The notes: generated by a model from the sequence alone, not told the origin. Positions 18,016 through 47,815 are shown, counted from the first letter of the stretch. The stretch is 64,000 nucleotides of DNA from a virus (IMGVR_UViG_3300025133_000026), one strand, 5' to 3'. Made by a program: numbers and translations.

Positions 18016-18826
18016 TGGGATACAAGACACCTATCATACAGGAGATATCCTAGGTATTGCTAACGAAGACCCTGCATTAAAATTTAGACCAACAGGAATG
18101 GTAACAAAAAAGGGTGGAGCCGCATACTGTCAAGCACTTCTTCAATCGTTTCTGCCTGACTATGAGATAGAGCTATTCTTAACTAGCCATTCTCACATTC
18201 AACGCTTTGTTGATAACAAATACAAAAGAGTTGTTCTTACTGTAGATACAGAACCAGTAGAAAAGTATCCGTATGAGGTTATTGCAAATCATGCGTTGGA
18301 AAGATTTGTAAAGTCTTGGGACCCTAGTGTTCTTTATATATGGGACGACGACAGAACTCCATCTTTACCCTCTTGGGTTTTTCGACTTTCGGGACTAGAT
18401 GCTCTTCCCGTTCGAGGAATTTATTTAGACTCTTCTAGGAAAAATACTTTGGGTTACCCTGTAGTTAGTTATAGAAAAGCCTCAGAAACTGAGAATATAT
18501 TACCTCAGCAAAATGACCATCTTTTAATTACAACAAGTGCCTCCAAGGTAGAAATCATTAATGCATGGGCTCTAAATCCTTTCGCACGCAAAGGAACCTT
18601 AAGGCCTATCGATTACTTAGTTCCTAAATCAAATAAAATTGTCGACACATGTGGTGCAGGAGACACATTTTTCACTGCCTTCTGTGCAGCCAAAGAACAA
18701 GGAAAAGAGTTAGAAGAAGCTATTCATTATGCTATCAGTGCAGCCTCTTTGAGTATTGAACACAATGGCTGTTTCCTCCCATCCTTACAAGAAATAGAGG
18801 ATAGACAATTAGAATATTATGGTTAA
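17978..18826 (+). CDS. PfkB-family sugar kinase, HldA/RfaE domain I-like (heptose-7-phosphate kinase-like)
   Basis: RILVIGDGIQDTYHTG..I..EDP...KGGAA aligns to RfaE GDVMLDRY..G...I.PE.P...GGAAN; anion hole DTCGAGD. TTG start with GGAGG upstream. Confidence 0.78.
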   Translation: MSITKKRILVIGDGIQDTYHTGDILGIANEDPALKFRPTGMVTKKGGAAYCQALLQSFLPDYEIELFLTSHSHIQRFVDNKYKRVVLTVDTEPVEKYPYEVIANHALERFVKSWDPSVLYIWDDDRTPSLPSWVFRLSGLDALPVRGIYLDSSRKNTLGYPVVSYRKASETENILPQQNDHLLITTSASKVEIINAWALNPFARKGTLRPIDYLVPKSNKIVDTCGAGDTFFTAFCAAKEQGKELEEAIHYAISAASLSIEHNGCFLPSLQEIEDRQLEYYG

Positions 18827-19223
18827 AGTAGTTATGACAGATAAAAAAACAGACCCTTCATATGTTCAGCGCTTTGAAAAAACAAAAAATGTTCCCAAAA
18901 GATGGGGTTATGAATTATGGATAGCCAATTCCCACCTATATTGTGGAAAGCAATTAAACATATTCCCCCTATGTCAAACCTCCTTGCATTTTCATGTAAA
19001 TAAAACAGAACACATTTATGTTTCTTCAGGAACTATGACTCTTGAAGTAGCAAAAAAGGATGGTTCTGGCTTACAGATTACAAGATTAAAACCAGGTGAT
19101 TCAGTAATTGTCACTCCTGGACTAATGCATAGACTTAAAAATGAAAACAGTACTGAAGACCTAGTTCTTATGGAATTCAGCACACAACACTTTGATGAAG
19201 ATAGTTATAGAGTACAAACATGA
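18819..19223 (+). CDS. Cupin (sugar isomerase-like)
   Basis: VPKRWGYELW, SLHFHVNKTEHIYV, GLMHRL...EFSTQH. Confidence 0.82.
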   Translation: MVKVVMTDKKTDPSYVQRFEKTKNVPKRWGYELWIANSHLYCGKQLNIFPLCQTSLHFHVNKTEHIYVSSGTMTLEVAKKDGSGLQITRLKPGDSVIVTPGLMHRLKNENSTEDLVLMEFSTQHFDEDSYRVQT

Positions 19224-32920: not shown

Positions 32921-32942
32921 GTACTTGTTTCATAAGAAGACT

Positions 32943-32971
32943 AAGAGGGAGCCTGAGTGCTCCCTCTTTTT
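32943..32971 (+). terminator. Rho-independent terminator
   Basis: Perfect 10 bp stem AAGAGGGAGC / GCTCCCTCTT, 6 nt loop, T-run, 22 nt after the stop of 32456..32920. Confidence 0.85.
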
Positions 32972-32976
32972 ATGTT

Positions 32977-33531
32977 ATGACTGATGCCTTGGACAGATAC
33001 ATATTCCCTCTTGGGACTATTCAGAGAGCGCCCGCGGCTATCTCTTTGTTGAATAATATTTATAATAAATATGAAGTCAATTGCCCAACGAGAGAAGAAC
33101 AACAAGAATATGTTGATCATATAAAAACTTTCTTATCATTATCAACAGCTGTTGCTCGTGGTTATCTTTTCTTACCAATTCCCCACATTCCCGCCTTGGG
33201 AATGTTAGGGGTAGTCCAGTTACCTGTTAATCCTATTTATTTTAGAGGAGTTTCTTCTCCATTTGGAATACATACCACCAACCCAATTGGCCAAGATGTT
33301 CTTGACATTAGTGTATTGTGGCAACAAAAACTAACGACAAAACCAGAGAGAAGAAAAAGCGAAGTAATAAAAAATAGGCCTATCGGAGAAGAAGGCTTTG
33401 CCTTTAAGTGTCTCCCAGATAGAACCTATTTATTACAAGACTGCGAATGGGTTGCAACGAACCCACCCACTTTAATTGGAAATAAATCCCTCTTGCTGAT
33501 TAAGACTGATGATAAGATTCAAGCTGAGTAG
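32977..33531 (+). CDS. Hypothetical protein (likely start ATG 32977, MTDALDRY...)
   Basis: Start placed after the terminator; the ORF-track N-terminal extension overlaps the previous gene. Confidence 0.6.
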   Translation: MTDALDRYIFPLGTIQRAPAAISLLNNIYNKYEVNCPTREEQQEYVDHIKTFLSLSTAVARGYLFLPIPHIPALGMLGVVQLPVNPIYFRGVSSPFGIHTTNPIGQDVLDISVLWQQKLTTKPERRKSEVIKNRPIGEEGFAFKCLPDRTYLLQDCEWVATNPPTLIGNKSLLLIKTDDKIQAE

Positions 33532-33745
33532 CTCTTGACTCTACACCATCCATACGGGTCTTCAGTTGCTCAACATCTGTTTGTTTGAGAAGACCCAACT
33601 GTGTTATCTGATCAATTGTGATAGTACGCCCGAGAGCAGTGATAACATCATTCATCTTATTCTCAAGTGCCTTGACTCTAGCCAACAGGGATTGATACTC
33701 CACAGAACTAACAGGCATATTACATCGCCTCCTCTTCGAAACCAT
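33500..33745 (-). CDS. Small coiled-coil protein, last gene of the minus-strand arm
   Basis: LLARVKALENKM...LKTRMDGVESR; probable start MPVSS. Confidence 0.65.
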   Translation of the reverse strand: MVSKRRRCNMPVSSVEYQSLLARVKALENKMNDVITALGRTITIDQITQLGLLKQTDVEQLKTRMDGVESRATQLESYHQS

Positions 33746-33971
33746 TTTGTTTTTTCTCTACAGGAGAGAACTTGGCCGCTACATTGGATGCAAAATAAGC
33801 ACCCCAAATCATACTTAGAAAAGCAACCCATTGCTCACCTGCAATTAGCACCCACTGAACAGCACCAAAAGCCGTCCAGGTTAAAGGAACTGCAAACAAT
33901 AAGGTAACCAATATTGTTAGTCCTACGGCTGCAGAGAATTTACGGGAAACCCATTTATTATGTTGTTCCAT
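33720..33971 (-). CDS. Two-TM holin-like membrane protein
   Basis: WVSRKF followed by two hydrophobic helices and a charged C-terminus. Confidence 0.6.
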   Translation of the reverse strand: MEQHNKWVSRKFSAAVGLTILVTLLFAVPLTWTAFGAVQWVLIAGEQWVAFLSMIWGAYFASNVAAKFSPVEKKQNGFEEEAM

Positions 33972-33974: not shown

Positions 33975-34964
33975 CTAAGTATAGCATCCTAACTGTAATG
34001 CCGTTAAATCGCTGAGATACATTTCTCGAAGAAGATCTCTCCAACTATAGCTAGGAGTCCAATCCAGGATAGCTTCTGCTTTAGAACCATCGCCTTTAAG
34101 ATATGGAACATCAGACGGCCGCATGTATCGCTTATCCATCCGATATACATCTTCATATTTGAGTTCTGCAAGTTCACAAACATACGCTAACATCTCCCTG
34201 ATTGATACTGATTCACCAGTTGCAATCACAAAATCTTGAGGTTTATCTTCTTGAAGCATTAGGTGCATAGCTCTAACATAATCTTTACTATGCCCTATGT
34301 CTCTGTATGCATCCATGTTACCCATATCTAGGCGATCTTGCAAGCCTAATTTTACAGAAGCAACACCTTTTGTGATCTTCCTTGGAGCAAAGTCTAATCC
34401 TCGTCTAGGTGACTCATGATTAAAAAGGATACCAGAACAGCAGTGAAGATCGTAGGCTTCACGATAGTTACGAACAGCATAAAAGCTAGCAGCTTTAGCA
34501 ACAGCATAAGGGGACCGGGGGTCGATGGGTGATTCTTCATTGTAGCCAGACTCAGGACATTTCATTCCTCCAAACAATTCACTTGTTGCGGCAAAGTAAA
34601 CCCTGGTCATAGGGCTCTCTTGTCTTACCGCTTCTAGTGCTCCAATAGTGGCCTCTGCGTCCACCCTGAAGGTCTGTATTGGCTCTTTGAAGGACTGGCC
34701 GACATGGGACATGGCTGCAAGCAAATAAAGCTCTGTGGGCTGTATCTGGCGCATTAGAGACTGCATCTGAGCATGGTCACATATATCACCAGGAACTAAA
34801 TGAAGTTTAGGGTGTTCTTTAATAAGTTTAATATTATTAAAGTTATTCCCTGTGCTCACTCTGCGATATAATCCATAAACATCGTAATCTTGTCCAATAA
34901 GATACTCTGCAAGATAACTGCCATCCTGGCCCGTCACCCCGGTAATCAACGCACGCTTCTTCAT
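33975..34964 (-). CDS. gmd: GDP-mannose 4,6-dehydratase
   Basis: ALITGVTGQDGSYLAE, AAMSHVGQSF, ATSELFG, PRSPYAVAK, GILFNHESPRRG. Confidence 0.96.
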   Translation of the reverse strand: MKKRALITGVTGQDGSYLAEYLIGQDYDVYGLYRRVSTGNNFNNIKLIKEHPKLHLVPGDICDHAQMQSLMRQIQPTELYLLAAMSHVGQSFKEPIQTFRVDAEATIGALEAVRQESPMTRVYFAATSELFGGMKCPESGYNEESPIDPRSPYAVAKAASFYAVRNYREAYDLHCCSGILFNHESPRRGLDFAPRKITKGVASVKLGLQDRLDMGNMDAYRDIGHSKDYVRAMHLMLQEDKPQDFVIATGESVSIREMLAYVCELAELKYEDVYRMDKRYMRPSDVPYLKGDGSKAEAILDWTPSYSWRDLLREMYLSDLTALQLGCYT

Positions 34965-36061
34965 TCTGCCTCCACAGAGTTTACTGCTTCAACAACAAGA
35001 TTTGCTTGTTCTTTTGTCATACAGGGATGAATTGGAAGAGAGATAAGGCGCTCAGATAGAGCTTCACAAACAGGTGTAGTTGCCGAACCAAAGAGCCCAG
35101 TCTCAGATAATGCCTCAGGATAATGATAGCCAAAAGCAATGTCAGCATTTGTCAAAGCAATTGCCACATGGTCACGATGCTTAGGGCTATCACAGCGATA
35201 TTCATAGAGATGATAAACATGAGTTGATCCTACTTGTTTCCCAGGCGACCGGTGTTCAAATGCATTGTCATATATCTTCGCCACTTCTTGTCTCTTCTTG
35301 TTCCATCCATCTAGAGCCCCCAGAGCATGGAATAACTGAGCTGCCTTGATTGTGTCAAGTCGAGAATTGCCTCCTAGGATTTTATGCTCATATTTCTTTT
35401 GGGCGCCCTGGTTGATCCAGGTACGAACATAATTAGCAATCTCTGTATTGTCTGTTAAAACAGCTCCACCCTGTCCTATAGTACCAAGGTTCTTGGCAGG
35501 ATAAAAGGATGTTGTGGCGGCATCTGCATAAGCTCCTAGGTGTTGTTTATTAAAAGTTGCTCCCAGTGACTGCGCGCCATCTTCTATTAAATAAACTCCA
35601 TGAGCCCAACACAGATCTTTTAGTTTAGCCATGTCTGGCCTTTGACCATAAAGAGATACAGCGACAACAGCAAGAAATTCACCTTTCCTAAAAGCAAGAT
35701 GATTTCTTACAGAATCTATATTAATTAGATATGTATTCGGATCAACGTCAACAAAGACAGGCTCTAGTCCAGCCTGTACAGCAGCGTAGGCAGTTGCAAT
35801 AAAAGTATTATTTGGCATTAATACTTTTTTTCGCTTAAGACTACCAGGAAGAGAAGAGAACACAATCCGCAAGGCATCCGTTCCATTTCCTACACCAACT
35901 ACATGTTTGCATCCAGTATAGTCTTCAAGAGCATTCTCAAAACGTTTAAGATATGATCCTCCAACAAACTGACAAGTATGAAGAATATCTAGAACATCTT
36001 TATCAATTGCATCCTGTATCTCTTTATACTGTCCGGGTAGATTTACAAAGTTAACTTTCAT
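34961..36061 (-). CDS. DegT/DnrJ/EryC1/StrS PLP-dependent sugar aminotransferase
   Basis: GVGNGTDAL, IEDGAQSLGA, SFYPAKNLG (PLP Lys), GGNSRLD, ISLPIHP. Confidence 0.95.
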   Translation of the reverse strand: MKVNFVNLPGQYKEIQDAIDKDVLDILHTCQFVGGSYLKRFENALEDYTGCKHVVGVGNGTDALRIVFSSLPGSLKRKKVLMPNNTFIATAYAAVQAGLEPVFVDVDPNTYLINIDSVRNHLAFRKGEFLAVVAVSLYGQRPDMAKLKDLCWAHGVYLIEDGAQSLGATFNKQHLGAYADAATTSFYPAKNLGTIGQGGAVLTDNTEIANYVRTWINQGAQKKYEHKILGGNSRLDTIKAAQLFHALGALDGWNKKRQEVAKIYDNAFEHRSPGKQVGSTHVYHLYEYRCDSPKHRDHVAIALTNADIAFGYHYPEALSETGLFGSATTPVCEALSERLISLPIHPCMTKEQANLVVEAVNSVEAE

Positions 36062-36076
36062 TTTGATTATAGAATC

Positions 36077-36484
36077 CTATTCTCGAAGAAATCCAGTTTT
36101 TTGGGTTCTTCCTTTTAGATGTTTATTAAAAAATACCAAGTCTGTTCTGTTCCACTTCTTATAACGTCCATGATTTACCAATCTCATCTTCTTTATTACT
36201 TTGTCTTGACCGCCATGCTTTTTAATTATATTTTTATTAAGATGGACTATATAGTTTCTTACTAATAGTTTTCCTAACCTTTCGTATTCTACAAAAGGAA
36301 TGCTTCTTTGATATCTGCTCGAAACAAGATCTATCAGTCGTAAAAAACTATGATGTTTTGTAAAGATATATGATTCGCCTCGCTGACCAACAATTTTTGG
36401 ATGACTAAAGATTACATTTGCCATGTATGTAGTCCCTGATCGCCCGTGGCCGCCAATAATAATTGGTGCTTTTGGTGGCATCAC
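36077..36484 (-). CDS. Short sulfotransferase-like protein (internally deleted or minimal)
   Basis: PIIIGGHGRSGTTY (5'-PSB-like); only 135 aa. Confidence 0.6.
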   Translation of the reverse strand: MMPPKAPIIIGGHGRSGTTYMANVIFSHPKIVGQRGESYIFTKHHSFLRLIDLVSSRYQRSIPFVEYERLGKLLVRNYIVHLNKNIIKKHGGQDKVIKKMRLVNHGRYKKWNRTDLVFFNKHLKGRTQKTGFLRE

Positions 36485-37395
36485 TTACTCCTTGCTGCTT
36501 TTAATACTTGTTCTTTGTGAGCATAATCTCTTTCATTTACAATTCTTATATCACATAATTGTCCAGATTCTGGAAGTACCAATACATCTAAAAGATTAAA
36601 GTCTTTGTCATATAGATTGATAGCAGAATCTCCACTCTCTCGATCTTCTCTAGATTTGCACTCTGAAACTCCGACGATGTAGCAATCTCTTGTGACAGCA
36701 AAACCACGTAACCAGGCGCCCTTGCCCAAGAATCTTTCTCTTTGTTTCTTTGTGTTTTGCTCAGTCCATAAAACTCTCCCATCATGAGAGCTAAAGGTTA
36801 AAATCTCACTACCTTCTCTGTAAACATTATGAGCTGCATAGCCAGCTGTAAAGCTATCTACTTCAGTCAAATTCTTGTCAAGAATAACTATACGGCTTTT
36901 ACGCTTAAGCTTCTTTTCTGTTCTTGTATTGAAATGAAGTCCAGCAGGACAATAGCCTACTTGGTTATGTTCAACAACATAAAAAAGTTCTTCTTCTTTG
37001 TCATACCAAATGGAATTAAAATGATTAAGGTCATTGCCTGTTGGTCGCCAACTAACTGGATCAAAAGCGCCATGCCGATATATGTAAAGAGAATTCGTCC
37101 CACTGTCTACTACTATTAGACTTCCTTCAAGATGAATCACTTGGTGATGGTGAGTTCCAGGTAAGTCTAATTCGTGTTTCTTTTTAAAGCTATGGTCCAT
37201 GACCAAAAGCTTTTCGCTTTTTGTGGCTATTTTATCTTGGTTCTCTCTTGCAACAACATAAAGATTATCTTTATCCCAAGACATACCATAATAAAGCCCC
37301 TGTCCTGTTAAGACAGGAACTATCTGTTTGTCCTGAATATGATAAACAGCTTGAGCCGTTGACACTAAAAAACTAGGCCACTTCATCCTTATCAA
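36481..37395 (-). CDS. Beta-propeller protein (DUF4915/TIGR03032-like resemblance)
   Basis: Repeated blades: YYGMSWD, HHHQV, NHFNSI, AHNV, WLRGFAV...VGVS. Confidence 0.6.
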   Translation of the reverse strand: MIRMKWPSFLVSTAQAVYHIQDKQIVPVLTGQGLYYGMSWDKDNLYVVARENQDKIATKSEKLLVMDHSFKKKHELDLPGTHHHQVIHLEGSLIVVDSGTNSLYIYRHGAFDPVSWRPTGNDLNHFNSIWYDKEEELFYVVEHNQVGYCPAGLHFNTRTEKKLKRKSRIVILDKNLTEVDSFTAGYAAHNVYREGSEILTFSSHDGRVLWTEQNTKKQRERFLGKGAWLRGFAVTRDCYIVGVSECKSREDRESGDSAINLYDKDFNLLDVLVLPESGQLCDIRIVNERDYAHKEQVLKAARSK

Positions 37396-37984
37396 ACCTC
37401 TTGTTCACTAGAAGCTTACCTGTTGATTCCATCTCAGAAAGATATTTTTCTACAATATCATCTGTAAAATTGAGATTGCAGTCAATTCCAATTCTATCTT
37501 CCAGCGGTACTTCGCCAACCCTGACTGCTGGACAGCCAAGATAAATGCCACCCTCTTCGCAATCTTTAACCACTACCGCGCCCGCACCAACGATAACGTC
37601 CTTGCCAATAGTAATACCAGACACAAGGGTTACACTGCCACCAATGATAGCACCTGATTTAATGTGAACACCACGAGAAATTTTCTTTACATTGCGTTGA
37701 AAAGAAACATTCTTCTCATGAATAATCATTATGCCAGGACCAATAAAAACTTTGTCTTCTATGACAGTCCCTTGTGTAATGCAAGACATTCTTTTGATAT
37801 GAACATCATTTCCAATCAATACAGTTCCTGAGGTGTTGCAGTAGTCGTCAAATTTTACATTGTTCCCAATGCGAGTTCCAGAATGAAGCTTACAAAAGTC
37901 TCCAATCTTTACATCGTCACCAAGAACAACATCATTGTCGATAACTGTATATTTTCCTGCTCTTGTATTCTTTCCTATTTTCAT
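37373..37984 (-). CDS. Hexapeptide-repeat (left-handed beta-helix) acetyltransferase 2
   Basis: Hexapeptide repeats; VFIGPG; IGKDVIVGAGAVVVKD...YLGCPA. Confidence 0.9.
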   Translation of the reverse strand: MKIGKNTRAGKYTVIDNDVVLGDDVKIGDFCKLHSGTRIGNNVKFDDYCNTSGTVLIGNDVHIKRMSCITQGTVIEDKVFIGPGIMIIHEKNVSFQRNVKKISRGVHIKSGAIIGGSVTLVSGITIGKDVIVGAGAVVVKDCEEGGIYLGCPAVRVGEVPLEDRIGIDCNLNFTDDIVEKYLSEMESTGKLLVNKRFDKDEVA

Positions 37985-38628
37985 TCAAACACCCACCTTT
38001 TAAGCACTGCCGGAACACCAGCAACAAGAGTTCTTGAAGCAACCGACTTAGTGACAACAGCACCAGCTGCTACTATTGCATTTTCTCCTATTTCAACACC
38101 AGGGAGAAGCGAACTGTTTTGTCCAATTCTAGCCCCTTTTTTAATAACAGGGCCAGCACTAGTCCATTCTTTTCCTTGAGGCGCTAACCTACCCATAGAG
38201 TTGTCGTTGGCACACATCGTTCCTTGTCCAATGAAGACACCATCTTCAATAGTCATGTTGCCAGAAATATTGCATAAATCCATGATTTTTACTTTGTTGC
38301 CAACAGTAGTTTTGAATCCAATTTTTGCATTCATTCCAACAATACAAAATTTACCAAGAACACAATGATCTCGGAGCTTGGCGCCATCACCGATAAGAGT
38401 ATTAGCTCCTACATAACAACCATGGTAAATAGTTGCTCCAGCCCCGATTACACAGTTCTCTTCAATATAAGTAGAAGTTAATTCTGTGCTGGGCTTTCGG
38501 CTAGTTGCACCAGAGGGAACTTTCGGCGGCTTTCCAATTACAGCAAAAGGACCGACTGACACGTTCTCACCCATAACAACACCTTCATAAATATAACAAG
38601 GAATCCCTTTCCATTCTGTTAGTATCAT
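37981..38628 (-). CDS. Hexapeptide-repeat acetyltransferase 1 (WbpD-like)
   Basis: GVFIGQGTMCAND; IGENAIVAAGAVVTKSV...VAGVPA. Confidence 0.9.
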   Translation of the reverse strand: MILTEWKGIPCYIYEGVVMGENVSVGPFAVIGKPPKVPSGATSRKPSTELTSTYIEENCVIGAGATIYHGCYVGANTLIGDGAKLRDHCVLGKFCIVGMNAKIGFKTTVGNKVKIMDLCNISGNMTIEDGVFIGQGTMCANDNSMGRLAPQGKEWTSAGPVIKKGARIGQNSSLLPGVEIGENAIVAAGAVVTKSVASRTLVAGVPAVLKRWVFE

Positions 38629-39485
38629 TAAATTTCTCCATGAGCTTTTAGTACTTCTAATATAAATTCAGCACGTTGTAGATAGGTGTGGTGGCACAAC
38701 ATATGCTTATAAGCCTTTTGTCCTAACTCTATTAAATCTTTTGGATATCTAGAATAATATTCTAAAGCGGGCTTTAGTTTAACAGATTCAATATAGTGTT
38801 CGTTTGGAGTAAAAAGTTCGCGTAAACCTTTGTGTGGGTATGTCAACACAGAAACTTGGCAACTAAAACTATCAAAATATCTTATTGGAACACCTGGCTT
38901 GCCCTCTTTCCAGAGATAATCATTCCAAATACCTATAGAGGCTAAGCTTTTAGATAAATGCCTGAATCTTTCTCTGTGGTAAAGATGGGGAGGAATGTTT
39001 CCCATAAGTTTATACATCCCTCCAATATCTTTCTTTATTTCTCTGTGAAGTACTCCGCGCAATGTGTCTTCTTTGCTTTTATCCTTAGCAAGGAGAACAA
39101 AATCAGATCTTTTTTTAGCGACCATCCATCCTCGCTGTAGACCAGCAAAGGGAAGGTAAAAACTATTTTTGACTTCGCGACGAGTTGTAAAATAATACTT
39201 TATTCCTCGTCGCCCACGAGCTAATTCGTGGCTAGCTTCCTTCTCCCAAAATATACAGATATGTTTTTTCTTTAATTTCTTTAAAATATTTGTAGGAGGT
39301 AATGTCGAAGGACAGGGGAATATAATTAGATCAATATTTCTTGCTTTGAGCCATCTTGATAATTTCTCATAAGGAAGTCCTAGCACTTCGTTGTGGCAGT
39401 GATAAACATTGTGCCCAAGAAGAGTAAAGCCACAACCTAATGCCTTCTCCAAAGGTCTTGTATGGCCAATAAGTATATTTAACAT
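38628..39485 (-). CDS. CgeB-like glycosyltransferase (Glyco_trans_1_2-like)
   Basis: PIRYFDSF, LRELFTPNEHY, HHTYLQRAEFIL. Confidence 0.75.
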   Translation of the reverse strand: MLNILIGHTRPLEKALGCGFTLLGHNVYHCHNEVLGLPYEKLSRWLKARNIDLIIFPCPSTLPPTNILKKLKKKHICIFWEKEASHELARGRRGIKYYFTTRREVKNSFYLPFAGLQRGWMVAKKRSDFVLLAKDKSKEDTLRGVLHREIKKDIGGMYKLMGNIPPHLYHRERFRHLSKSLASIGIWNDYLWKEGKPGVPIRYFDSFSCQVSVLTYPHKGLRELFTPNEHYIESVKLKPALEYYSRYPKDLIELGQKAYKHMLCHHTYLQRAEFILEVLKAHGEI

Positions 39486-40408
39486 TTCTTTAATATATCT
39501 TCAATATCTCCAACAACCCTCATTCCAAGACTCCCTGGAGAAACAAAAGGTTTATCTAATAAAATCCAATCTGCAAATTCATCAACAAGCAAAGCCAATG
39601 GCTCTTTAACTTCTCCTTCATAAATAGACATCCAACTATAACGATGGGCCATGTCTCTATCAATACCAACAATGGCTTTGTCGTAAATAATAAGAGGAGA
39701 GTCAGACAACATGTCATACTCAATCATCCCATTAGTTCCGACTACAGTTGTTGTTCTGTCTTTCTTCGGGTTTAACCAGCTTAAATCTAATCCATAAGTC
39801 ATCCCAGTTTTGTATTCTATATGGATAGTTGCTGTATCAACAACATCATTCTGTAGATGAGTTCCAGAAACTACAGCCGAGACTTGAAAGTCAGAACCAA
39901 AAAGATAATCCATAACGGCTAAGTCATGTGGTGCTAAATCCCAGATAACTCCAGACAATTGGAACTTACCAAAATTAAGACGTCTAGAAACTACATGAAG
40001 AATATCCCCAATTTTTCCAGCTTGAATTAATTTTCTAAGTTGTCTTATATGTGAACTAAACAAAAATGTATGATCTACGCCTAATTTAAGATTCTTTTCA
40101 GCGGCCAGCCGGACAAGGGCTTGTGCATCTTTTAGGGTTGTTGTTAGTGGCTTTTCTACAAGGACATGTTTTCCTGCCAACAAGGCTTCTTTTGCCACAC
40201 TATAGTGGGTTTCGGGAGGAGTAGCAATAACAACAGCATCGAAGTCTCTCATGGCCAATGCATCTTTTAAAGACTTTTCTTCCCTCTCTTCTTCGCCTGC
40301 TTGCATATCAACCAAAGCAGTCACTTTTATTCTGCTATTTTTTTCTAAATTTCTAAGTAACTTTGGGCCCCAATATCCTTTATGTCCTACAAGACATATA
40401 CTTAACAT
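39479..40408 (-). CDS. Gfo/Idh/MocA-family NAD(P)-dependent sugar oxidoreductase (WbpB-like)
   Basis: VGHKGYWG, IATPPETH, HVLVEKP, VDHTFLF, WDLAPHD. Confidence 0.92.
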   Translation of the reverse strand: MLSICLVGHKGYWGPKLLRNLEKNSRIKVTALVDMQAGEEEREEKSLKDALAMRDFDAVVIATPPETHYSVAKEALLAGKHVLVEKPLTTTLKDAQALVRLAAEKNLKLGVDHTFLFSSHIRQLRKLIQAGKIGDILHVVSRRLNFGKFQLSGVIWDLAPHDLAVMDYLFGSDFQVSAVVSGTHLQNDVVDTATIHIEYKTGMTYGLDLSWLNPKKDRTTTVVGTNGMIEYDMLSDSPLIIYDKAIVGIDRDMAHRYSWMSIYEGEVKEPLALLVDEFADWILLDKPFVSPGSLGMRVVGDIEDILKKC

Positions 40409-41257
40409 TTAAACTCCTAACTTATAGTTTTCGATTATTTTTAAATAAGCTTTAGCCATTTTGAATGCCGACCATTTTTTATAGACTAACTCTAAACATT
40501 TATTAGAGCAGTAAGTATAAAAATCTTTATCTGTACTCAGTTCTTCTAAACAAACAACAGCGTCTTCTATTTTCTTGAAAGCAAGACTATTGAGTATAGG
40601 ATGAAGAGAAATTAACTTTTTGTTTCTGGGATGAAGTAGTGTTACTACAGGCAAACCACAAGCCATGGCTTCTTTTGGAGCTAAACCAAGAGAGTAGCTT
40701 AGAACAAATACTTTGCTTTTCCAATAAAAATTCCTCACTCCATCTTTCTCTACTGCGGGTATATCATACCCTACCAAAGGAATTTCCTTAAATTTTTGCA
40801 TTTCTTTTAAAAGATCAATTCTCTTTTGGTCATAGCGTGCTTTGTTCCAAATATCAGCACAAGAAATAAACCCAAATCTCGAAGTCACCGAAGGTCTCCA
40901 AAAGTTTAGATCTATACCATTGGGAATGTGATGGATACCTTTTTTGGGCTGACAAAGCATACCACCCTCAAGGGGTGAACGCTCATCAACAATGATAATT
41001 GGTCGATGAGTTGTAGGCAATCGATGATCAAGAGACCATCGGTTATGATCAATTAACAAAACATTTTGCAGATCAATTAACTTTCCTGCCTCTACAAAAG
41101 TAATAGAAGCAATGATTAAGTCATAAGGAGAGAGGTCTAAATCAAAATCTTTCGGAGTGGCAGGGTTGACAGTTATGTCCATTAGTCCAAGAGAATAAAA
41201 ACCTTTAGCTAAATAATCACCCCAGGTGGGATGATGCGGAAGAATCAATATATTCAT
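40409..41257 (-). CDS. GT-B (GT4-like) glycosyltransferase
   Basis: HHIPNGIDLNFW; VFVLSYSLGLAPKEAMACGLPVV. Confidence 0.8.
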   Translation of the reverse strand: MNILILPHHPTWGDYLAKGFYSLGLMDITVNPATPKDFDLDLSPYDLIIASITFVEAGKLIDLQNVLLIDHNRWSLDHRLPTTHRPIIIVDERSPLEGGMLCQPKKGIHHIPNGIDLNFWRPSVTSRFGFISCADIWNKARYDQKRIDLLKEMQKFKEIPLVGYDIPAVEKDGVRNFYWKSKVFVLSYSLGLAPKEAMACGLPVVTLLHPRNKKLISLHPILNSLAFKKIEDAVVCLEELSTDKDFYTYCSNKCLELVYKKWSAFKMAKAYLKIIENYKLGV

Positions 41258-42066
41258 ACATTAAACTTCCACTTCTTTTTTCTTTTAATCCAAGAAACGA
41301 TAACCTTTGGGTGAGATCCTGCAAAAGTCTGTGTTTTAAGACTACCTGGATTATAGACAAAACTTGACTGAATGTATCTTTTATTGCGAAAAGAACGATA
41401 GTTCGCATTCTCTACAGCAAACTGTTTCTTTAGTTTTTTCCCCATAGCTTCCGCGTCTCTGCACCAACCGTAATGGTTTACAAAAGCAGATACTTTTTGT
41501 ACATCGGCGCGAGCATAAAACTTTTCTGTATTGATATCAATATTATCAACACCAACAGCTACATGAGAACAGCCAGGCCTAGCAATAAACCTTACTTTTT
41601 GATTTCGACGAGTAAGCTTTGAACGCTCTTGATACCATTTAGTGTCTATCACTTGTTTTTGTGCTTTCACCCCAAAGAAATGCCTAAACTTAAATACAAA
41701 ATAATTTTTATCTCTTCTTTTACTTATCTCTATTATCTTTTTTGCTGTCTTTGAGGGCACTACTTCGTCAGCATCTGCTCTCCAAATCCATTCGCTTGTA
41801 CAGGCCCGCAAAATCCGAGTTCTTAGTTTAGATTCAGTAGAGCGGTTTAACGCCCAAGGATGCCGCAAAATAACAAATCGTCCATTTGGCTGAACTTGAT
41901 AAAACTCTTCTTGAAGATCTAACAACAACTCTAATGTATTATCAATAGAGTGTGCTTCCAAAATGACTATCTCATTAGAAAAAGCAAAAAGAGATCGTAT
42001 AGCTGCTTGCATTGGATAGTCAAGAATCTCCACATCCCTAACCCACATTACTGAACTAACAGACAT
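41254..42066 (-). CDS. GT-A (GT2-like) glycosyltransferase
   Basis: NEIVIL...SIDNTL; EWIWRADADE (DxD); NHYGW. Confidence 0.85.
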   Translation of the reverse strand: MSVSSVMWVRDVEILDYPMQAAIRSLFAFSNEIVILEAHSIDNTLELLLDLQEEFYQVQPNGRFVILRHPWALNRSTESKLRTRILRACTSEWIWRADADEVVPSKTAKKIIEISKRRDKNYFVFKFRHFFGVKAQKQVIDTKWYQERSKLTRRNQKVRFIARPGCSHVAVGVDNIDINTEKFYARADVQKVSAFVNHYGWCRDAEAMGKKLKKQFAVENANYRSFRNKRYIQSSFVYNPGSLKTQTFAGSHPKVIVSWIKRKKKWKFNV

Positions 42067-42072
42067 AAGTGA

Positions 42073-42411
42073 TTACTTTACTTCAAATTCAGCATCAACC
42101 TTGTCATACCAAGTCACTCCTTCACGAACTAAACCAAATCTTATTTCGTATTTTCCTGACAATAAAGAAAGATCAGCTGCTTCAAAAGAAGTGCGATAAA
42201 CCACTGTTTCTCCAGCAGGAACAGTATCTGCCCTAACTAGCCCTACCCTATAAGGTATCTTTATTTCCTTGTCTCCAACAAGATGTCTTATACGACAAGG
42301 CCTAATCAGTAATTTACTTTTGCTCTGATCTTGACCAGTAGTATTGTCTAGCTCAAGAATAAAGAAGAATTTATTCTTTCGACGATAAGCTTTGATTACT
42401 TTGAGTTTCAT
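42073..42411 (-). CDS. Small Ig-like protein within the glycan locus
   Basis: V.AGETV...GKYEIRFGLVREGVTW, a beta-sandwich pattern. Confidence 0.55.
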   Translation of the reverse strand: MKLKVIKAYRRKNKFFFILELDNTTGQDQSKSKLLIRPCRIRHLVGDKEIKIPYRVGLVRADTVPAGETVVYRTSFEAADLSLLSGKYEIRFGLVREGVTWYDKVDAEFEVK

Positions 42412-43790
42412 AAGTCCATAACCTCGATAAGCCTCTTGGCAGAAAGATCATAATTCTCATTCTTCCTAACCCATTGAGCGGCTTTCTTTCCTTTTTTAAA
42501 TGCCTCTCTTTTGTGAGAGACAATATGACGCATTTGTTCTACTAAATCATCAGTATTAATTTTAGCATACTGACCAAAATCATCTGATCCATTATTGTGT
42601 GATCTTAAGAATTTAGGCAAGTCAGCTCGTTGTAAGCCACTTGGATTCACCCAATAAGCGATATCATCCTTGCATATTTCTGTAAGAGAAGACCAGTTAC
42701 AAAGAATAACGGGGAGTCCCGTGCACATAGCCTCTCGTGGAGGTAGGCCATAGCCCTCTCCGTTAGAGGGAAATAGGAAACAGTCGGCCCGGTGCATTAG
42801 ACTCACCAATTCTTTATGCGGCAACCTTGCATCTATAACCTCAACATTGCTTGGCAAGTTAGGCTTGTTTCCTCCCCACCCTCCGCTGATTTTTAAAATA
42901 AGCTTCACATCTGTTCTATTCCCAAAAGCTCTTTTGAATGCTGCCAACGTCAGAGGGTAGTTCTTCCTAGAGTTAGACCAATGCGCATTAGCTAGCAAGA
43001 GAAACTCAAAGGGTTTATCTCTCTTTGCTCTATTCTCACACATAGGCCATATCTTATGATTTACCCCCAAGGGAACTTTGTGGATAGGAACTTTTACCCC
43101 TGCGTCTTTGAAAATCTTTTTACAAAAGTCAGAAGGAACAATAAGGTGATTAAACTTATTGTTAATTCTACCGGCCCAGGCGCTAGGAACCTTTGTCGTT
43201 TCGAACATTGTGAGAATATATTTCTCTGCTCTTTGACATTTTCCATGCGTCCTGGTTATAGCTGGAGTATGATATAAAAGATATTTCTTGTAAAGGAAGT
43301 TTCTTTCATTAACCAACTCATGGAATTTTGCACTAGCTAAATGATTGTTATTCCTACGTGTAGGGACAAATGACATAGAGATATGTGCACGATCCAGAGC
43401 GAGAACTAATTGCTCTGTACTATTTCCATAACCATCACAAGGGTCGAACACTCCTTCAAATACCAATCCTTTCTCCAGAGGAGCTACAGATTGATCCATA
43501 AAGGCGTGGCCTAGTTCTTTACACAAAGCCGTATAGACATCCTCTACATCTTTTCCATTCTTCAAGCATCTTGAATAGTCAATTACATATCCAAAACGTT
43601 GTCTTTTGAATCCCATAAGAGGGATAATCCCTATCCCAGGATATTTTTGAGGTAAGCCCGGTGCTGGGTTGGCGAGAGCAAAATGCCAACTATACCTAGA
43701 GGTTTCCTCTTTTATCTTGTTAATAGCTGCAAAATAAATTTTATATAGTTCTGGGTTTTGTTTAGGAAATTGAATAACTACTTTTTTCAT
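42408..43790 (-). CDS. GT4-family glycosyltransferase with N-terminal extension
   Basis: DGYGNS, MFETT, VPSDFC, RKN, FLFPSNGEGYGLPPREAMCTGLPVI. Confidence 0.9.
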   Translation of the reverse strand: MKKVVIQFPKQNPELYKIYFAAINKIKEETSRYSWHFALANPAPGLPQKYPGIGIIPLMGFKRQRFGYVIDYSRCLKNGKDVEDVYTALCKELGHAFMDQSVAPLEKGLVFEGVFDPCDGYGNSTEQLVLALDRAHISMSFVPTRRNNNHLASAKFHELVNERNFLYKKYLLYHTPAITRTHGKCQRAEKYILTMFETTKVPSAWAGRINNKFNHLIVPSDFCKKIFKDAGVKVPIHKVPLGVNHKIWPMCENRAKRDKPFEFLLLANAHWSNSRKNYPLTLAAFKRAFGNRTDVKLILKISGGWGGNKPNLPSNVEVIDARLPHKELVSLMHRADCFLFPSNGEGYGLPPREAMCTGLPVILCNWSSLTEICKDDIAYWVNPSGLQRADLPKFLRSHNNGSDDFGQYAKINTDDLVEQMRHIVSHKREAFKKGKKAAQWVRKNENYDLSAKRLIEVMDL

Positions 43791-45820
43791 TTTAAAGTCA
43801 AAAGCTTTTGAGCTGTAACAACAAAGGTCTCTGCCACTGCAGAGTCTACTGTTTGCAACAACTCTTTCTTAATTGTAACGAGTTCATCATTATAAAGATA
43901 TCCTTCAGAGGCAATGTCAAAAGCTGTCCCCAATTCTTCGAGATCAAATCCCTCGACTTGACCAAGGACTTTCTTTGTTTCAGAATAAAAAACATTATGA
44001 AGTTCTGTATTTCCCTGTAAGAAATAAGAAGCGTTAAAGGGCATGTCCAGCTTTTTGAGTGCTGGAGAACTTATCGTAGGCTTTCCATATAGCATTGCTT
44101 CTTTCAAGTAAGTACCCAAGTGAACATCATCTAATTGAATGTAAACATCAATCCCCCTAAACCATTTATGCATAACTGCTCTATTGGTCAAAGGAACAAC
44201 ATTAACAGAAGGACTTACAAAAGGTGCTTCGCCCGATGCCAAATCCTGTAATAGTGTTAACTGAAGGTCTTTCCATCCAAACTTTTTTGTTCCCTTTATT
44301 AAATCCTGTAACCTTGATCTTGAAACATTCTTAACAACACTACCCACTACAAGCTTGTTTTTGGTTGGGTTGTGAATTCGAGAAAGACTAACATTTAAAG
44401 GTAGGTCTACTACATAGATTGGCTTAGAAACTCCTGCGTCGATAATTAAAGACTCTGCATATTTAGATGTCACAAACAATGCATCATAGTCTCGAGTTAA
44501 TCGATTGATTGCTTCTCGAGAAAGCTTCCTCTCTTCTATTAGTACAAAAGCAAATCGCAGTAATCCCTGCGCTGGCATTGCATAGTTCGTACGAACAAGA
44601 GTGGAGGTTTTAAACACATCAACAACCAAGGCATCCTTGTTGTTTTGGGATGGATTAAGAGAAGCCTTGAAGCCTATCTTCTTGAAGATCTCCTTTAGAG
44701 ATTCTGCAAGATAACCTGTTTCAAAATCTGGCTCAATCAGAGTGAAGATATCGATAGGTATTTTCTTATCAAGAATAGTTACTAGATCTTTATCTAGTCT
44801 AGATTCAATCGCCTGGCCGACTTCTTGATAGGTAATTCCTTTCATACAAGCAATATTGATTGAGCACGGCTTGTAGAAACACCCAGCACATGGAAGGTCA
44901 CTAAATACAGCAGTTGCATTTTTGTAATGATTCAGCCGAGCCATGGGAGGAGTAGAACCGAAGACCCCTACAATATCTTTTTCAAGCGCACCTGCGATAT
45001 GAAGCATCCCTGAGTCAGGGCCAACAAAAAGACTACAGGCATTTACTAATGCAGACTTCGCTCTTAGGTCAAACTGAGAAACATCCCATGTGTTCTTATA
45101 GTCCCAGGTCCTACCCAGTCTTTTATTATGATCGTTAACAAGGAATTTTAAATCATTTCTGATGCTATTCAAATAACCAATAAGATGGACATACTTTCCA
45201 ACAGGCCATGTCCGGCGAGGGTCAACAGAAGCAATATCTAAGAAAACTAATTTAGTGCCATTGAGTTTGCCAAACTGTTTCTTCAGGATTTTCCCCACCC
45301 ATTCCTTTTCTTTTTTAGATACAATGTAAGTAGGCTTCTTGTTCGGAAGCCTAATCCCTACATAATCTGCAAACAAATCAATACGATTGCGAGGATATAA
45401 ATTCTTGTTTTCATGGGTAAGGCCCGCTGTCGTAATATCAGAAAAGAAATGGTAATCTTCTCTATTGACTTTTTGGAAATCAACAACATGATCTATATGA
45501 GGATTCTCTTTAAGAAGATCGCTCAAAACTCCAGGCTGTGTAGCATATGTCGTTTCACAGTTGGGGTAGAAATGCTTAAAAGCCTCCAAGACAGGAGTTG
45601 ACATAATGATATCACCGATACCGCCTAGCTTTCTCTGAATACAAACCTTAACAATAGATTGATCTCCTCCTAGTTGAGGAACAGAATTCTTTTGTTGAAA
45701 GTTCGGACGCTTTTGAGCCTTTCCTCTTCCACCATTTGTGACAACGGGGATTTGCTTTCTTGTTGGACGAGCTACTCCTCGACCACCGATACGTCTATTC
45801 TTTCTAAATACATTTCCCAT
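43787..45820 (-). CDS. GT9 (ADP-heptose heptosyltransferase-like) fused to a degenerate GT-B domain, with basic N-terminal tail
   Basis: GGIGDIIMSTP, RTWP, FVGPDSGMLHIAGAL, VFGST, CAGC...C...CM; C-terminal half has DVYIQL...KEAMLYGKP. Confidence 0.85.
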   Translation of the reverse strand: MGNVFRKNRRIGGRGVARPTRKQIPVVTNGGRGKAQKRPNFQQKNSVPQLGGDQSIVKVCIQRKLGGIGDIIMSTPVLEAFKHFYPNCETTYATQPGVLSDLLKENPHIDHVVDFQKVNREDYHFFSDITTAGLTHENKNLYPRNRIDLFADYVGIRLPNKKPTYIVSKKEKEWVGKILKKQFGKLNGTKLVFLDIASVDPRRTWPVGKYVHLIGYLNSIRNDLKFLVNDHNKRLGRTWDYKNTWDVSQFDLRAKSALVNACSLFVGPDSGMLHIAGALEKDIVGVFGSTPPMARLNHYKNATAVFSDLPCAGCFYKPCSINIACMKGITYQEVGQAIESRLDKDLVTILDKKIPIDIFTLIEPDFETGYLAESLKEIFKKIGFKASLNPSQNNKDALVVDVFKTSTLVRTNYAMPAQGLLRFAFVLIEERKLSREAINRLTRDYDALFVTSKYAESLIIDAGVSKPIYVVDLPLNVSLSRIHNPTKNKLVVGSVVKNVSRSRLQDLIKGTKKFGWKDLQLTLLQDLASGEAPFVSPSVNVVPLTNRAVMHKWFRGIDVYIQLDDVHLGTYLKEAMLYGKPTISSPALKKLDMPFNASYFLQGNTELHNVFYSETKKVLGQVEGFDLEELGTAFDIASEGYLYNDELVTIKKELLQTVDSAVAETFVVTAQKLLTLK

Positions 45821-45841
45821 AATCCACGTTTTTAAGACTTA

Positions 45842-47815
45842 CTATCTATACCAGCAAACATTGATTGCTACGACACCAACATCACCATCCCAATCATCGT
45901 CGGCATGTCCAACAACTCTTGTTAACTTCAACAAGAGTGGTCCCATTTTAGGACTCTCAAGGTCTTGAATACCAAAATCAACAGTATATATTAAATCTTC
46001 AGACGTTCCCATTACCCAACCTGTTTTTGAAATGCTATCTACATTTACCCATACAGGATTTGCCGTCTGAGCATCTCCTACTGTATCATAGTTTCCACTA
46101 GCATGAGGATCCGAAGCATCTAGTTGCCAACGACTACCAGTGCCCCCAGCGGGCGCTTCAGGCTTTAGGGTAATGTAGACTCTAAACCTAGAAGGATAGT
46201 TGTCATCTTCATCCATTGGGACTGTACTATATACATATCCTGACTCTGCGACTGTTTGGTCATATAGACAGCTTCTCCAAACCATTGCAGGTGGACCGGT
46301 GTATTCTGAGTTTGCTGGAGCCGGTCCGGCGGCTGCTGCAGGCTTCATAATTTGATCAGCATGAATTGTATTGTTGGCAATAAGTTTTTCAAAGACAAAG
46401 CCATCTCTTGTAATTTGAACTACATTTCCATTTTCATCTTGTGTGTATAGTTCAGAATCTCCACTGTCATCTTTTGAATATACTTTTACAGAACCTGTTG
46501 TGGCACCAGGATCACCGCTAGATTCTTCTAAGACAATAGGGACATCTCCCTTCGTAACAAGTTCGTCAATATGAACTTCTACTTTTGCAGATCCGCCATT
46601 GTCTGCAACAGAGAATAAAGAAGAGCCTAGTCCAGCAACAGTATCTCTGATTTGTACTTGACCGATACCACCAAGAAGACTAATACGGCCATTTGATCCA
46701 GCCTGATATGCAGTATTAAGAGACCAACCATTTAGTTCTGCATCAAGTGCCTGGATGGCTGCTTCGAGGGTTGTCCCATCAGAGACAGTTGCGATTGGGC
46801 CAGAGTCACTATAAGTACCAAGGATGTCATCAGCATCAAGACCATGAGGGTTTATTGCTGTTTGGGCCGCGGACCCCTTAGAGTCAATATGAGCTGCAAG
46901 AGAAATAATATTGGAATCATATCCTGGAGCAACTCCTGCATCTGTATTCCACACCCCACCTCTTAACCGAGCCAGCTCCCACCGAAGTCTATTGAGATCA
47001 TCTTCGAGTGTTGTTACTGTACCAACCCTATTTAAAATAGTATAATCTACAGAATTATCTACACCCGTTTGGGGAATCAACTCATCGTAAACAAGGTCAC
47101 TAGTATTGGTCGTATGAGACAAGGTAATATCATTAGATGAAATTAGGCCTGTTGCATAGCTAGAACCACCATGAACTGCTAAAAGTGCTTCAACCATCTC
47201 TAGAACAGAGTTTGATAAGTCTCTATTCCCATCACAGTCAAGGACATAGTCATTTCCAAAGACATCTTTGCTCAACTGAGTGAGATTGAGTTCTGCACAG
47301 CTAAGTCGACCATCCATCGAAGTAGAAGAGCTAGAGGCAGTGCTATCAAATGCTTTTGATCCGATATAGGCTTTGGTATAAGAACTAATTCCTGTTACTG
47401 ATCCAATCTGTGCCTCTAAAGAAGCAATAGATGTATCAAGCTGATTAGAAAGCTTGATAAAGCTTTCTTTGATTGTCGCTCGACGATTTCCCTCAAAGAA
47501 CAAATACATTGTTCCTTGATCTGCAATTGTAGAATTGCTTAAAGCGATATTTCCATCAGTCCAAATATGATCACCACCCAAACCATAAACAGCAGCATCT
47601 AGAGAAGCTGTTAATAATGGTTTCTCATCATCATCAGCTCCACGAGGCAAAGCACTCAGTAAAGGAACAAGGGTGTTGTTGTGAAAATTTTGAAGTTCAG
47701 TTAGGTCCGCAGCAATCTCTACGAGAGAAGAGTTTAACTGTTTCATCGGGAAAGCTCCACCAGAAACGAGTCTTACTGACCGTGATCTAGGAACAATAGT
47801 TTTTATCTTTGACAT
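45842..47815 (-). CDS. Putative virion protein (tail fibre/appendage-like)
   Basis: Acidic S/T/G-rich; INPHG and TLEAAIQALD fibre-like motifs; beta-rich C-terminal domain. Confidence 0.55.
   Translation of the reverse strand: MSKIKTIVPRSRSVRLVSGGAFPMKQLNSSLVEIAADLTELQNFHNNTLVPLLSALPRGADDDEKPLLTASLDAAVYGLGGDHIWTDGNIALSNSTIADQGTMYLFFEGNRRATIKESFIKLSNQLDTSIASLEAQIGSVTGISSYTKAYIGSKAFDSTASSSSTSMDGRLSCAELNLTQLSKDVFGNDYVLDCDGNRDLSNSVLEMVEALLAVHGGSSYATGLISSNDITLSHTTNTSDLVYDELIPQTGVDNSVDYTILNRVGTVTTLEDDLNRLRWELARLRGGVWNTDAGVAPGYDSNIISLAAHIDSKGSAAQTAINPHGLDADDILGTYSDSGPIATVSDGTTLEAAIQALDAELNGWSLNTAYQAGSNGRISLLGGIGQVQIRDTVAGLGSSLFSVADNGGSAKVEVHIDELVTKGDVPIVLEESSGDPGATTGSVKVYSKDDSGDSELYTQDENGNVVQITRDGFVFEKLIANNTIHADQIMKPAAAAGPAPANSEYTGPPAMVWRSCLYDQTVAESGYVYSTVPMDEDDNYPSRFRVYITLKPEAPAGGTGSRWQLDASDPHASGNYDTVGDAQTANPVWVNVDSISKTGWVMGTSEDLIYTVDFGIQDLESPKMGPLLLKLTRVVGHADDDWDGDVGVVAINVCWYR

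Follow-up and report, generated by a model that had tools for sequence, protein, structure and literature searches.

A glycan-synthesis island behind the tail-fibre gene of uncultured marine myoviruses, and its possible role in virion glycosylation

The window analysed here – a stretch of 64,000 nucleotides from the virus record IMGVR_UViG_3300025133_000026 – holds a run of genes for sugar-handling enzymes next to genes for the tail. These genes form a glycan-synthesis island that occupies a set place in the tail operon, as cargo between a gene for a receptor-binding-type fibre and the operon's conserved terminal genes. New here are the fixed slot, a constant gene for a glycosyltransferase of family GT9, a variable remainder, the existence of relatives without an island, and a GT9 fusion after the major capsid gene in an unrelated lineage. 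The source record is a linear IMG/VR entry of 151,482 bp, estimated to be 85% complete and with a GC content of about 40%. Its plus-strand arm is devoted to replication and nucleotide metabolism (ribonucleotide reductase, a PolIII-alpha-type polymerase, primase-helicase, RecA, ThyX, dUTPase and ClpP), and its minus-strand arm encodes large proteins that match the PHROG category 'virion structural protein', among them s684 (E 3e-21) and s1038 (E 6e-17). The identical sequence is present in several marine metagenomes, with a word depth of about 430 in one marine sample and low depth elsewhere. The 50,697 deposited phage records hold no relative by megablast and no useful one by tblastn, and there is no cultured relative.

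The genes in and around the slot, in the direction of transcription, are these:

45842..47815, minus strand: s657, a distal tail-fibre or receptor-binding-type protein of 657 amino acids (aa), in front of the island slot (synteny, conserved N-terminus)
43787..45820, minus strand: GT9_677, with a basic disordered N-terminal tail (residues 1-46), a GT9 heptosyltransferase-type GT-B domain (58-345) and a second GT-B domain (355-677) (PF01075; AlphaFold2, AF2)
42408..43790, minus strand: GT4-type glycosyltransferase, 460 aa (PF00534, 45 bits; PF20706, 28.8 bits; phrog_2170 glycosyltransferase, E 7e-36)
42073..42411, minus strand: Ig-like beta-sandwich protein, 112 aa, a lead only (ESM Atlas Ig-like/CARDB/N_BRCA1_IG clusters, scores 0.91-0.93; no family match)
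41254..42066, minus strand: GT2 glycosyltransferase, 270 aa (PF00535, 37 bits)
40409..41257, minus strand: GT4-like protein, 282 aa, marginal (PF13692, 26 bits against a cut-off of 27; PF00534, 22.8 bits)
39479..40408, minus strand: Gfo/Idh/MocA oxidoreductase, a probable nucleoside diphosphate (NDP)-sugar 3-dehydrogenase (PF01408, PF22725)
38628..39485, minus strand: Glyco_trans_1_2 (CgeB-like) glycosyltransferase, 285 aa (PF13524, 47.5 bits)
37981..38628, minus strand: hexapeptide (left-handed beta-helix, LbH) N-acetyltransferase, 215 aa (PF00132)
37373..37984, minus strand: hexapeptide (LbH) N-acetyltransferase, 203 aa (PF00132)
36481..37395, minus strand: beta-propeller (SMP-30 / DUF4915-like), 304 aa (Atlas structural look-alikes, TM 0.82-0.84; no family match)
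36077..36484, minus strand: 135-aa protein with a sulfotransferase-type loop for binding 3'-phosphoadenosine-5'-phosphosulfate (PAPS) only (PF13469, 22.9 bits against a cut-off of 27, profile positions 1-28)
34961..36061, minus strand: DegT-family sugar aminotransferase, 366 aa, probably acting at C-3 (PF01041, 296 bits)
33975..34964, minus strand: Gmd-like GDP-mannose 4,6-dehydratase, 329 aa (PF16363, 343 bits)
33720..33971, minus strand: 83-aa open reading frame (ORF), whose translation reads as two hydrophobic segments (holin-like) (weak match to phrog_20455)
33500..33745, minus strand: 81-aa coiled-coil protein of cluster c14, at the far edge of the island slot (tblastn to the c14 genes of relatives)

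The island consists of 13 co-directional minus-strand ORFs, from 45820 down to 33975, joined at nine start/stop overlaps of 1-23 nt, one abutting junction without a gap, and two gaps of 6 and 15 nt. A first-pass annotation, made from the sequence alone, had described twelve co-directional and mostly coupled genes, set off from the upstream 657-aa ORF by a 21-nt gap (45821-45841). Orientation, coupling and gap all stand, and the number becomes 13, as in that annotation's own list of functions. Its stated range also takes in 45842-47815, which is the distal fibre gene and not an enzyme. The five glycosyltransferases that it named (GT9, GT4, GT2, the marginal GT4-like protein and the 'CgeB-like' Glyco_trans_1_2 protein) were recovered in Pfam and NCBIfam searches, and family searches also matched the oxidoreductase, the aminotransferase, the two acetyltransferases and Gmd. 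Three labels are softer: those of the propeller and the Ig-like protein come solely from ESM Atlas look-alikes, and the sulfotransferase-like label is marginal, the match being confined to the PAPS-binding loop. Past Gmd the operon runs on, on the same strand, through the 83-aa ORF and then the 81-aa coiled-coil ORF.

The enzymes of the island appear soluble, as had been noted for the transferases: the highest 19-residue Kyte-Doolittle mean is 1.67, short of what a membrane helix would show, and it falls within a beta-helix protein. The whole 151-kb record encodes no polytopic membrane protein – no protein has more than three hydrophobic segments, and the segment-rich ones are small – and a hydrophobic-segment scan of the same record found none of the membrane components of GtrABC/Oac serotype-converting cassettes (flippase, bactoprenol-linked transferase, acyltransferase).

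The first gene of the island, GT9_677, encodes a GT9-family GT-B enzyme with intact motifs. Its PF01075 match reaches 58.1 bits against a cut-off of 22 (residues 146-321), and in the AF2 model (predicted local distance difference test, pLDDT, 84.6) the first Rossmann strand begins at residue 58. Foldseek ranks WaaF, 3TOV, WaaC and TibC level, at E values of about 1e-10 to 1e-11 and 14-16% identity; 1PSW, 3TOV, 6DFE and 2GT1 are among the entries matched in that range. The motifs GGIGD and DSGxLH align with the solved GT9 protein 3TOV; together with Cys 311/314/319/325 they are invariant or nearly so among 14 and 42 homologues. The basic N-terminal tail, some 45 aa long with a net charge of +5 to +15, is kept in relatives and absent from more distant phage GT9 proteins. 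The second GT-B domain has a Foldseek match to the chlorovirus NY2A transferase 3OY2 (E 6e-8), a generic GT-B similarity. Scored on the models for lipopolysaccharide (LPS) heptosyltransferases I and II, the protein reaches 56.7 bits against 185.3 (TIGR02193) and 47.6 against 134.6 (TIGR02195). Homologues of similar length occur in metagenomic contigs only. Several GT9 homologues of about 690-1060 aa (P0008, P0018, P0019, P0040 and P0041) carry intein/LAGLIDADG domains (PF14528, PF14890, PF07591) inside the transferase; inteins are usually located in conserved, important phage genes.

The place of the island was examined in two samples of related loci. A single-sequence scan of viral contigs for GT9 gave nothing, and an alignment-based IMG/VR scan gave 56 loci; a second IMG/VR scan, queried with the s684 fibre protein and independent of GT9, gave 57. 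Loci were compared by tblastn, clustering and hidden Markov models. Among the 57 fibre-sampled loci GT9 lies downstream on the same strand in at least 26, and the island is on the opposite strand in three; 17 loci could not be judged for the island, which leaves 40, of which 29 carry one and 11 do not. The 11 pass from the fibre gene, in most cases directly, to the terminal gene c60, c14 or a homologue of the 81-aa ORF. The gene order s1038, s684, s657-type is kept in relatives. GT9 is the only constant island gene and is usually the first: at least 14 loci have it immediately behind the distal fibre gene, and its start overlaps the fibre stop in L009, L014, L015, L020, L024 and L049. Whether related phages keep the locus beside tail genes was a check that the first-pass annotation had suggested; the survey supports such a link, with the island of relatives directly after the distal fibre gene, in the tail operon, and GT9 at its head. 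Island size ranges from GT9 alone, or GT9 with a methyltransferase, up to the 13 genes of the window. The variable cargo of relatives includes FkbM and S-adenosylmethionine (SAM) methyltransferases, pyruvyl transferases, full-length sulfotransferases, GT25, GT4, Gmd and DegT. In an unrelated lineage the order is portal, major head protein (phrog_334, E 1e-40), small gene c102, a GT9+GT2+GT2 fusion and an epimerase.

In many related phages the gene immediately before GT9 is an actin-like gene of the Volactin family (PF25216, E 1.5e-72). It is found at L021:8844-9845, and also in L026, L027, L029, L041, L043, L047, L059, L060, L065, L067, L071 and L083. The window phage has no Volactin-family gene at that position.

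Both borders of the slot are recognisable. On the upstream side, a homologue of s657 follows the s684 fibre gene in 53 of the 57 related loci. Conservation within this family is limited to the N-terminal 130-250 profile positions, and the reading frames span about 210-1950 codons; a conserved N-terminus with a remainder that varies in sequence and length is the pattern of a receptor-binding protein. s657 itself has no Pfam, PHROG or NCBIfam match, and its AF2 monomer is unusable (pLDDT 44.5). On the downstream side, the 81-aa ORF is 26-40% identical by tblastn to the c14 gene of L011, L013, L015, L017, L019, L020, L023 and L024. In relatives c14 is the conserved last gene of the tail operon, so the island fills a defined slot within that operon. 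For the 83-aa ORF there is no tblastn homologue in the first 56 related loci. Within the s657 gene, contigs of high depth from three other marine runs show a 3-base and a 1-base deletion relative to window positions 47448-47454; they probably come from a different organism or a repeat, as they share only a short local match with s657.

What the island might make can be approached through its tailoring enzymes. The top NCBIfam match of the oxidoreductase is an archaeal UDP-GlcNAc 3-dehydrogenase (128 bits, under the cut-off). Among Protein Data Bank (PDB) entries the DegT aminotransferase matches 7B0D (228 bits), QdtB (197), WbpE (187) and a perosamine synthase (115). The closest solved proteins for both acetyltransferases are 7S3U/7S43, WxcM-like 4MZU, WlbB (3MQG) and QdtC, and for the acetyltransferase at 37981..38628 the PerB match is much weaker. 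Taken together, these matches suggest a route from a 3-keto through a 3-amino to a 3-acetamido sugar. A perosamine route (Gmd, Per, PerB) is not favoured, the aminotransferase and both acetyltransferases being nearer to C-3 enzymes of the QdtB/WbpE and QdtC/WlbB types. Gmd scores 338.7 bits over the full length of TIGR01472, against an equivalog cut-off of 415, with the runner-up NCBIfam family at 107 bits; it is 55% identical to the island Gmd of L020, and the island holds no partner reductase for it. The GT2 protein has a weak match to a SunS-family S-glycosyltransferase in NCBIfam (20.5 bits, far under the cut-off). Only about 36 N-terminal residues of the 135-aa protein align with a full-length island sulfotransferase of a relative, and with a match to the loop alone its part in sulfating the glycan, for which the first-pass annotation had allowed, is doubtful.

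Genes that fit a heptose donor lie on the other arm of the window, in the company of a cupin gene:

2970..3539, plus strand: HldC-like heptose-1-phosphate adenylyltransferase (TIGR02199, rfaE_dom_II, 73 bits, E 2e-20, under the cut-off)
13710..14216, plus strand: GmhB-like heptose-1,7-bisphosphate phosphatase (NF050049, NF006506 and TIGR00213, 82-84 bits, E 1e-23, all under their cut-offs)
17978..18826, plus strand: PfkB-family sugar kinase (weak top match to heptose-7-phosphate kinase, HldA-like; C-terminal motif only, 48 bits, under the cut-off)
18819..19223, plus strand: cupin, 134 aa

The phage-borne GmhB-like, HldC-like and possibly HldA-like genes are consistent with a supply of heptose donor for GT9. 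The sole PDB match of the HldC-like protein is 5X9Q, a putative cytidylyltransferase; the NCBIfam scan of the phage proteins showed no GmhA, and an assignment of the cupin as GmhA-like or as a 3,4-ketoisomerase was not achieved. Of the glycan that had been foreseen – heptose plus an N-acetylated amino or deoxy sugar – the heptose part fits these genes, and the amino-sugar part is here adjusted to C-3 chemistry. In L025 a 349-aa protein (L025:2374-3423), encoded on the same arm as that locus's GT9 island, matches both the HldC-like and the GmhB-like protein of the window and appears to be a fused phosphatase-nucleotidyltransferase.

A central issue is the molecule to which the glycan is attached. 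We tentatively propose, as the best of the readings considered but one that falls somewhat short of probable, that the island glycosylates a virion protein, the fibre, in a clade of uncultured marine myoviruses. Gene content, solubility, synteny, variability and the GT9 motifs are as described above; the donor sugars, the order of action and the acceptor are what we infer. Cytoplasmic enzymes made alongside the tail proteins would build an oligosaccharide on one of the virion proteins, most likely the adjacent fibre, either while the particle is being assembled or beforehand. The chain would start with a heptose that the GT9 domain transfers from ADP-heptose, a donor that the GmhB-like, HldC-like and perhaps HldA-like enzymes of the phage would help to supply. 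The second GT-B domain of GT9_677 and the four other transferases would then lengthen the chain, with a 3-acetamido sugar provided by the oxidoreductase, aminotransferase and acetyltransferase, and a 6-deoxyhexose derivative provided by Gmd.

Several known systems invite comparison. In the BAHT systems (TibC-TibA and Aah-AIDA-I) a soluble enzyme of GT9 fold acts in the cytoplasm, transferring heptose from ADP-heptose to Ser, and its gene adjoins an adhesin-type gene, as GT9_677 adjoins that of the fibre. BAHT genes are typically followed by the gene of their autotransporter substrate, and membership by sequence is set at >50% homology to TibC/AAH (PMC4358343). The phage GT9 also resembles TibC in fold (Foldseek E of about 4e-10). 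It has a four-Cys cluster late in its C-lobe, with a spacing (CxxC-x4-C-x5-C) that is much tighter than that of the TibC iron-finger (Cys 339, 342, 358 and 370). It differs in an identity of only about 16% and in a disordered basic tail where TibC has a beta-barrel. It also carries a second GT-B domain, and genes for a multi-sugar pathway come after its own, so that more than mono-heptosylation is to be expected; its substrate would be a phage fibre rather than an autotransporter.

Mycobacteriophage virion-glycosylation systems also include O-methyltransferases, and relatives of the window phage pair GT9 with methyltransferases. Glycosylation of mycobacteriophage virions by phage-encoded transferases, with the glycans on the C-termini of capsid or tail-tube subunits of actinobacteriophages, is summarised in two accounts (PMC12619734, PMC12582341). 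Our proposal likewise has soluble phage transferases decorating the phage's own particle; here, by contrast, the phage is a marine myovirus, the neighbouring gene encodes a tail fibre, priming would fall to a GT9, and glycosylation is predicted from the genes. Giant-virus glycan clusters include steps of Gmd, aminotransferase and acetyltransferase type. For chloroviruses and Mimivirus, virus-encoded and host-independent synthesis of rare amino and deoxy sugars and multi-domain transferases acting on virion proteins are part of the published picture (PMC9614988); these viruses have eukaryotic hosts, and no homology with the island has been shown. A literature search found no publication that links GT9 enzymes to phage particles or describes a GT9-beside-fibre arrangement.

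A virion target is favoured by a convergence of observations. GT9 is found repeatedly right behind a virion gene in two unrelated lineages, the island is bracketed on both sides by genes of the tail operon, and GT9 stays constant while the tailoring genes vary. The GT9 motifs are intact and the fold is as near to TibC as to WaaC/WaaF; the pairing of BAHT and adhesin genes offers a parallel and the mycobacteriophages a precedent. To this can be added the heptose-nucleotide pathway genes on the other arm, together with a record in which nothing would make a glycosylatable DNA base and ThyX is ordinary-looking.

Other observations weigh against the virion as target. No acceptor signature was found in the structural proteins, be it Ser/Thr tracts, Cys enrichment or tandem repeats. 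The S/T-rich neighbours of the first-pass annotation do show elevated Ser+Thr (13-23% in the upstream structural proteins, most at 18-22%, against 8-12% in the island enzymes); the low-complexity tracts were not found. A Ser-rich motif of s657 does not track GT9, being missing from many fibres of GT9-bearing relatives. The same fibre genes occur without an island in 11 of the 40 judged relatives, and a third lineage has its GT9 after the gene for a DnaB helicase. One subgroup (L001-L008, L010, L012, L016, L018, L025 and L028) carries the island on the replication/recombination arm, where an endonuclease-I-like gene precedes it and it runs towards the fibre genes in convergent orientation, so that late expression with the structural genes, as had been supposed, fits the tail-operon placement of the window's own subgroup and is not a conserved feature. 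The junction of two converging arms is also a common place for accessory cargo of any sort.

In NCBIfam the best named matches of GT9_677 are LPS heptosyltransferases I, II and III, all under their cut-offs, and the BAHT model is absent among the matches at E <= 0.01; the GT9 family profile, searched against PDB sequences, finds no TibC chain at E <= 1; and the N-terminal beta-barrel of TibC is missing from the AF2 model. PDB sequence and profile searches do not separate TibC-like from WaaC/WaaF-like, and Foldseek ranks both equally; with fold and sequence equally near to TibC, WaaC and WaaF, neither reveals the acceptor. The LPS-core transferases WaaC and WaaF are soluble or peripheral, and depend on host MsbA and Lpt. 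A soluble enzyme set thus does not exclude a cell-envelope target, and the earlier argument from a missing flippase, polymerase and initiating transferase is a weak one. The virion-glycosylation interpretation as first put forward is partly supported: the link to tail genes and the heptose genes speak for it, and it is weakened by what is said above of the soluble set, of late co-expression, of the island-less relatives and of the acceptor motif.

A serious rival to fibre glycosylation, remodelling of the host envelope, strikes us as rather unlikely, although it has much to commend it. Enzymes at the inner membrane face would act on lipid A-core (a lipooligosaccharide-type extension) or another glycolipid, and export by host MsbA and Lpt would mask the receptor of the adjacent fibre, leading to superinfection exclusion or to progeny that do not stick to debris. 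LPS-core transferases need no flippase or polymerase from the phage, and the O-antigen-modifying genes of P22- and Sf6-type phages also lie beside the tailspike gene. The GT9 domain, besides its LPS-type named matches, finds 3TOV, WaaF and WaaC, and WaaC/WaaF share its Pfam family, fold and GD and DSGxxH-type motifs; what the phage enzyme adds is the basic N-tail, the Cys4 cluster, the fused second transferase and a phage-borne position beside a fibre gene. That basic tail could bind anionic lipid, and the island is optional, hypervariable and, in one subgroup, on the non-structural arm. It is routine to annotate GT9 genes of phages as LPS genes (PMC10747093), and P-SSM2, a lytic marine cyanomyovirus, carries a large epimerase/transferase/synthase cluster whose function was never established and for which alteration of the cell surface was proposed, with no fibre-gene link or constant GT9 primer described (PMC1079782). 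Yet the LPS models are far under their cut-offs (57 against 185 and 48 against 135 bits), a phage whose host already puts heptose on its LPS would not be expected to bring a heptose-nucleotide pathway of its own, and a GT9 fusion directly behind a capsid gene in a second lineage is hard to explain in this way. Placement in a late tail operon, at least in the window's subgroup, would leave little time to renew the LPS of a non-growing infected cell, and LPS altered only at a late stage of lytic infection would scarcely make its way to the cell surface. The batches scanned, which did not amount to a systematic search, yielded no integrase and no lysogeny function.

The acceptor may instead be a phage protein outside the virion, a protein of the host, an oligosaccharide that stays soluble or is secreted, or a small molecule, and the place beside the fibre gene would then reflect only a permissive insertion site where the two arms meet; we regard this as improbable. 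It would sit comfortably with an optional island (absent in 11 of 40) that switches strand between subgroups, with GT9 genes in the replication modules of another lineage, and with the match of the 460-aa GT4 to PF20706, 'GT4 in conflict systems' (28.8 bits). It sits poorly with a GT9 that comes right after a virion gene again and again, often with stop/start overlap and in two unrelated lineages; and a set of five transferases plus tailoring enzymes points to a glycan of some size, not to one regulatory sugar. Very improbable, in our judgement, is hypermodification of DNA, in which the transferases would glycosylate a modified base, as happens in T4 and RB69 and with the metavirome clusters described by Pyle et al. 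(heptose on 5-hydroxymethylcytosine, 5hmC). Phage transferases related to LPS enzymes add hexose, N-acetylhexosamine (HexNAc), heptose and Kdo to 5hmC, and one of those clusters combines a HAD/kinase enzyme with a cytidylyltransferase and a GT-B transferase; such clusters can adjoin structural genes (bioRxiv 10.1101/2023.12.21.572611). Like the island, DNA-glycosylation clusters come with their own sugar-nucleotide genes, have heptose among their sugars and are sometimes near structural genes (bioRxiv 10.1101/2023.12.21.572611; PMC13326640), and the window phage does have HAD, kinase and nucleotidyltransferase genes and a strongly basic GT9 tail; in another lineage GT9 comes after DnaB. But these clusters need enzymes that make 5hmC or 5-hydroxycytosine (5hoC), and none was found in the 151-kb record: PF00303 (thymidylate synthase), PF12851 (Tet/JBP) and PF00145 (C5-cytosine methyltransferase) are unmatched at E <= 1, an absence that is not proven because the record is 85% complete. 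ThyX (16545-17432, plus strand) scores 139 bits on TIGR02170, above the equivalog cut-off of 87.9, so ordinary thymidylate synthesis is expected; and the DNA transferases described are T4 beta-GT-like or GT-A, not CAZy GT9.

Some further features of the window deserve mention. Where the two arms converge, a likely terminator stands past the end of the plus-strand arm (32920):

32943..32968, plus strand: hairpin with a 10-bp stem, then a T-run

Two long plus-strand ORFs at 32773-33531 and 33566-33907 were considered as genes and rejected. They are probably spurious, having an odd Arg/Cys/Trp/Ser-rich composition and lying past the terminator of the plus arm, opposite the true small genes of the minus strand. 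At the far end of the window (62001-64000) GC content rises to 0.51, against about 0.39 over the rest of the structural arm.

To our knowledge, actinobacteriophages and some giant and archaeal viruses are the only viruses for which glycosylated virions have been demonstrated so far. It is possible, and we advance this fuller statement with more caution than the claim of fibre glycosylation itself, that a clade of abundant uncultured marine myoviruses decorates its receptor-binding fibres with a heptose-primed glycan that varies from phage to phage, by means of a swappable island and a constant GT9, TibC/AAH-like but of a separate branch, with a basic docking tail. If so, this would be the first virion glycosylation shown in phages that infect Gram-negative bacteria, and a new function for GT9 in viruses. 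Fibres that carry a self-made, variable glycan would bear on host range, adsorption, particle stability and sticking to marine particles, and receptor-binding proteins would possess a second, sugar-based layer of variation. Should the target prove to be host LPS, the island would exemplify a lytic phage that masks the receptor and needs no membrane component to do so. With either target, the habit of labelling GT9 genes of phages 'LPS auxiliary metabolic genes' would need correction.

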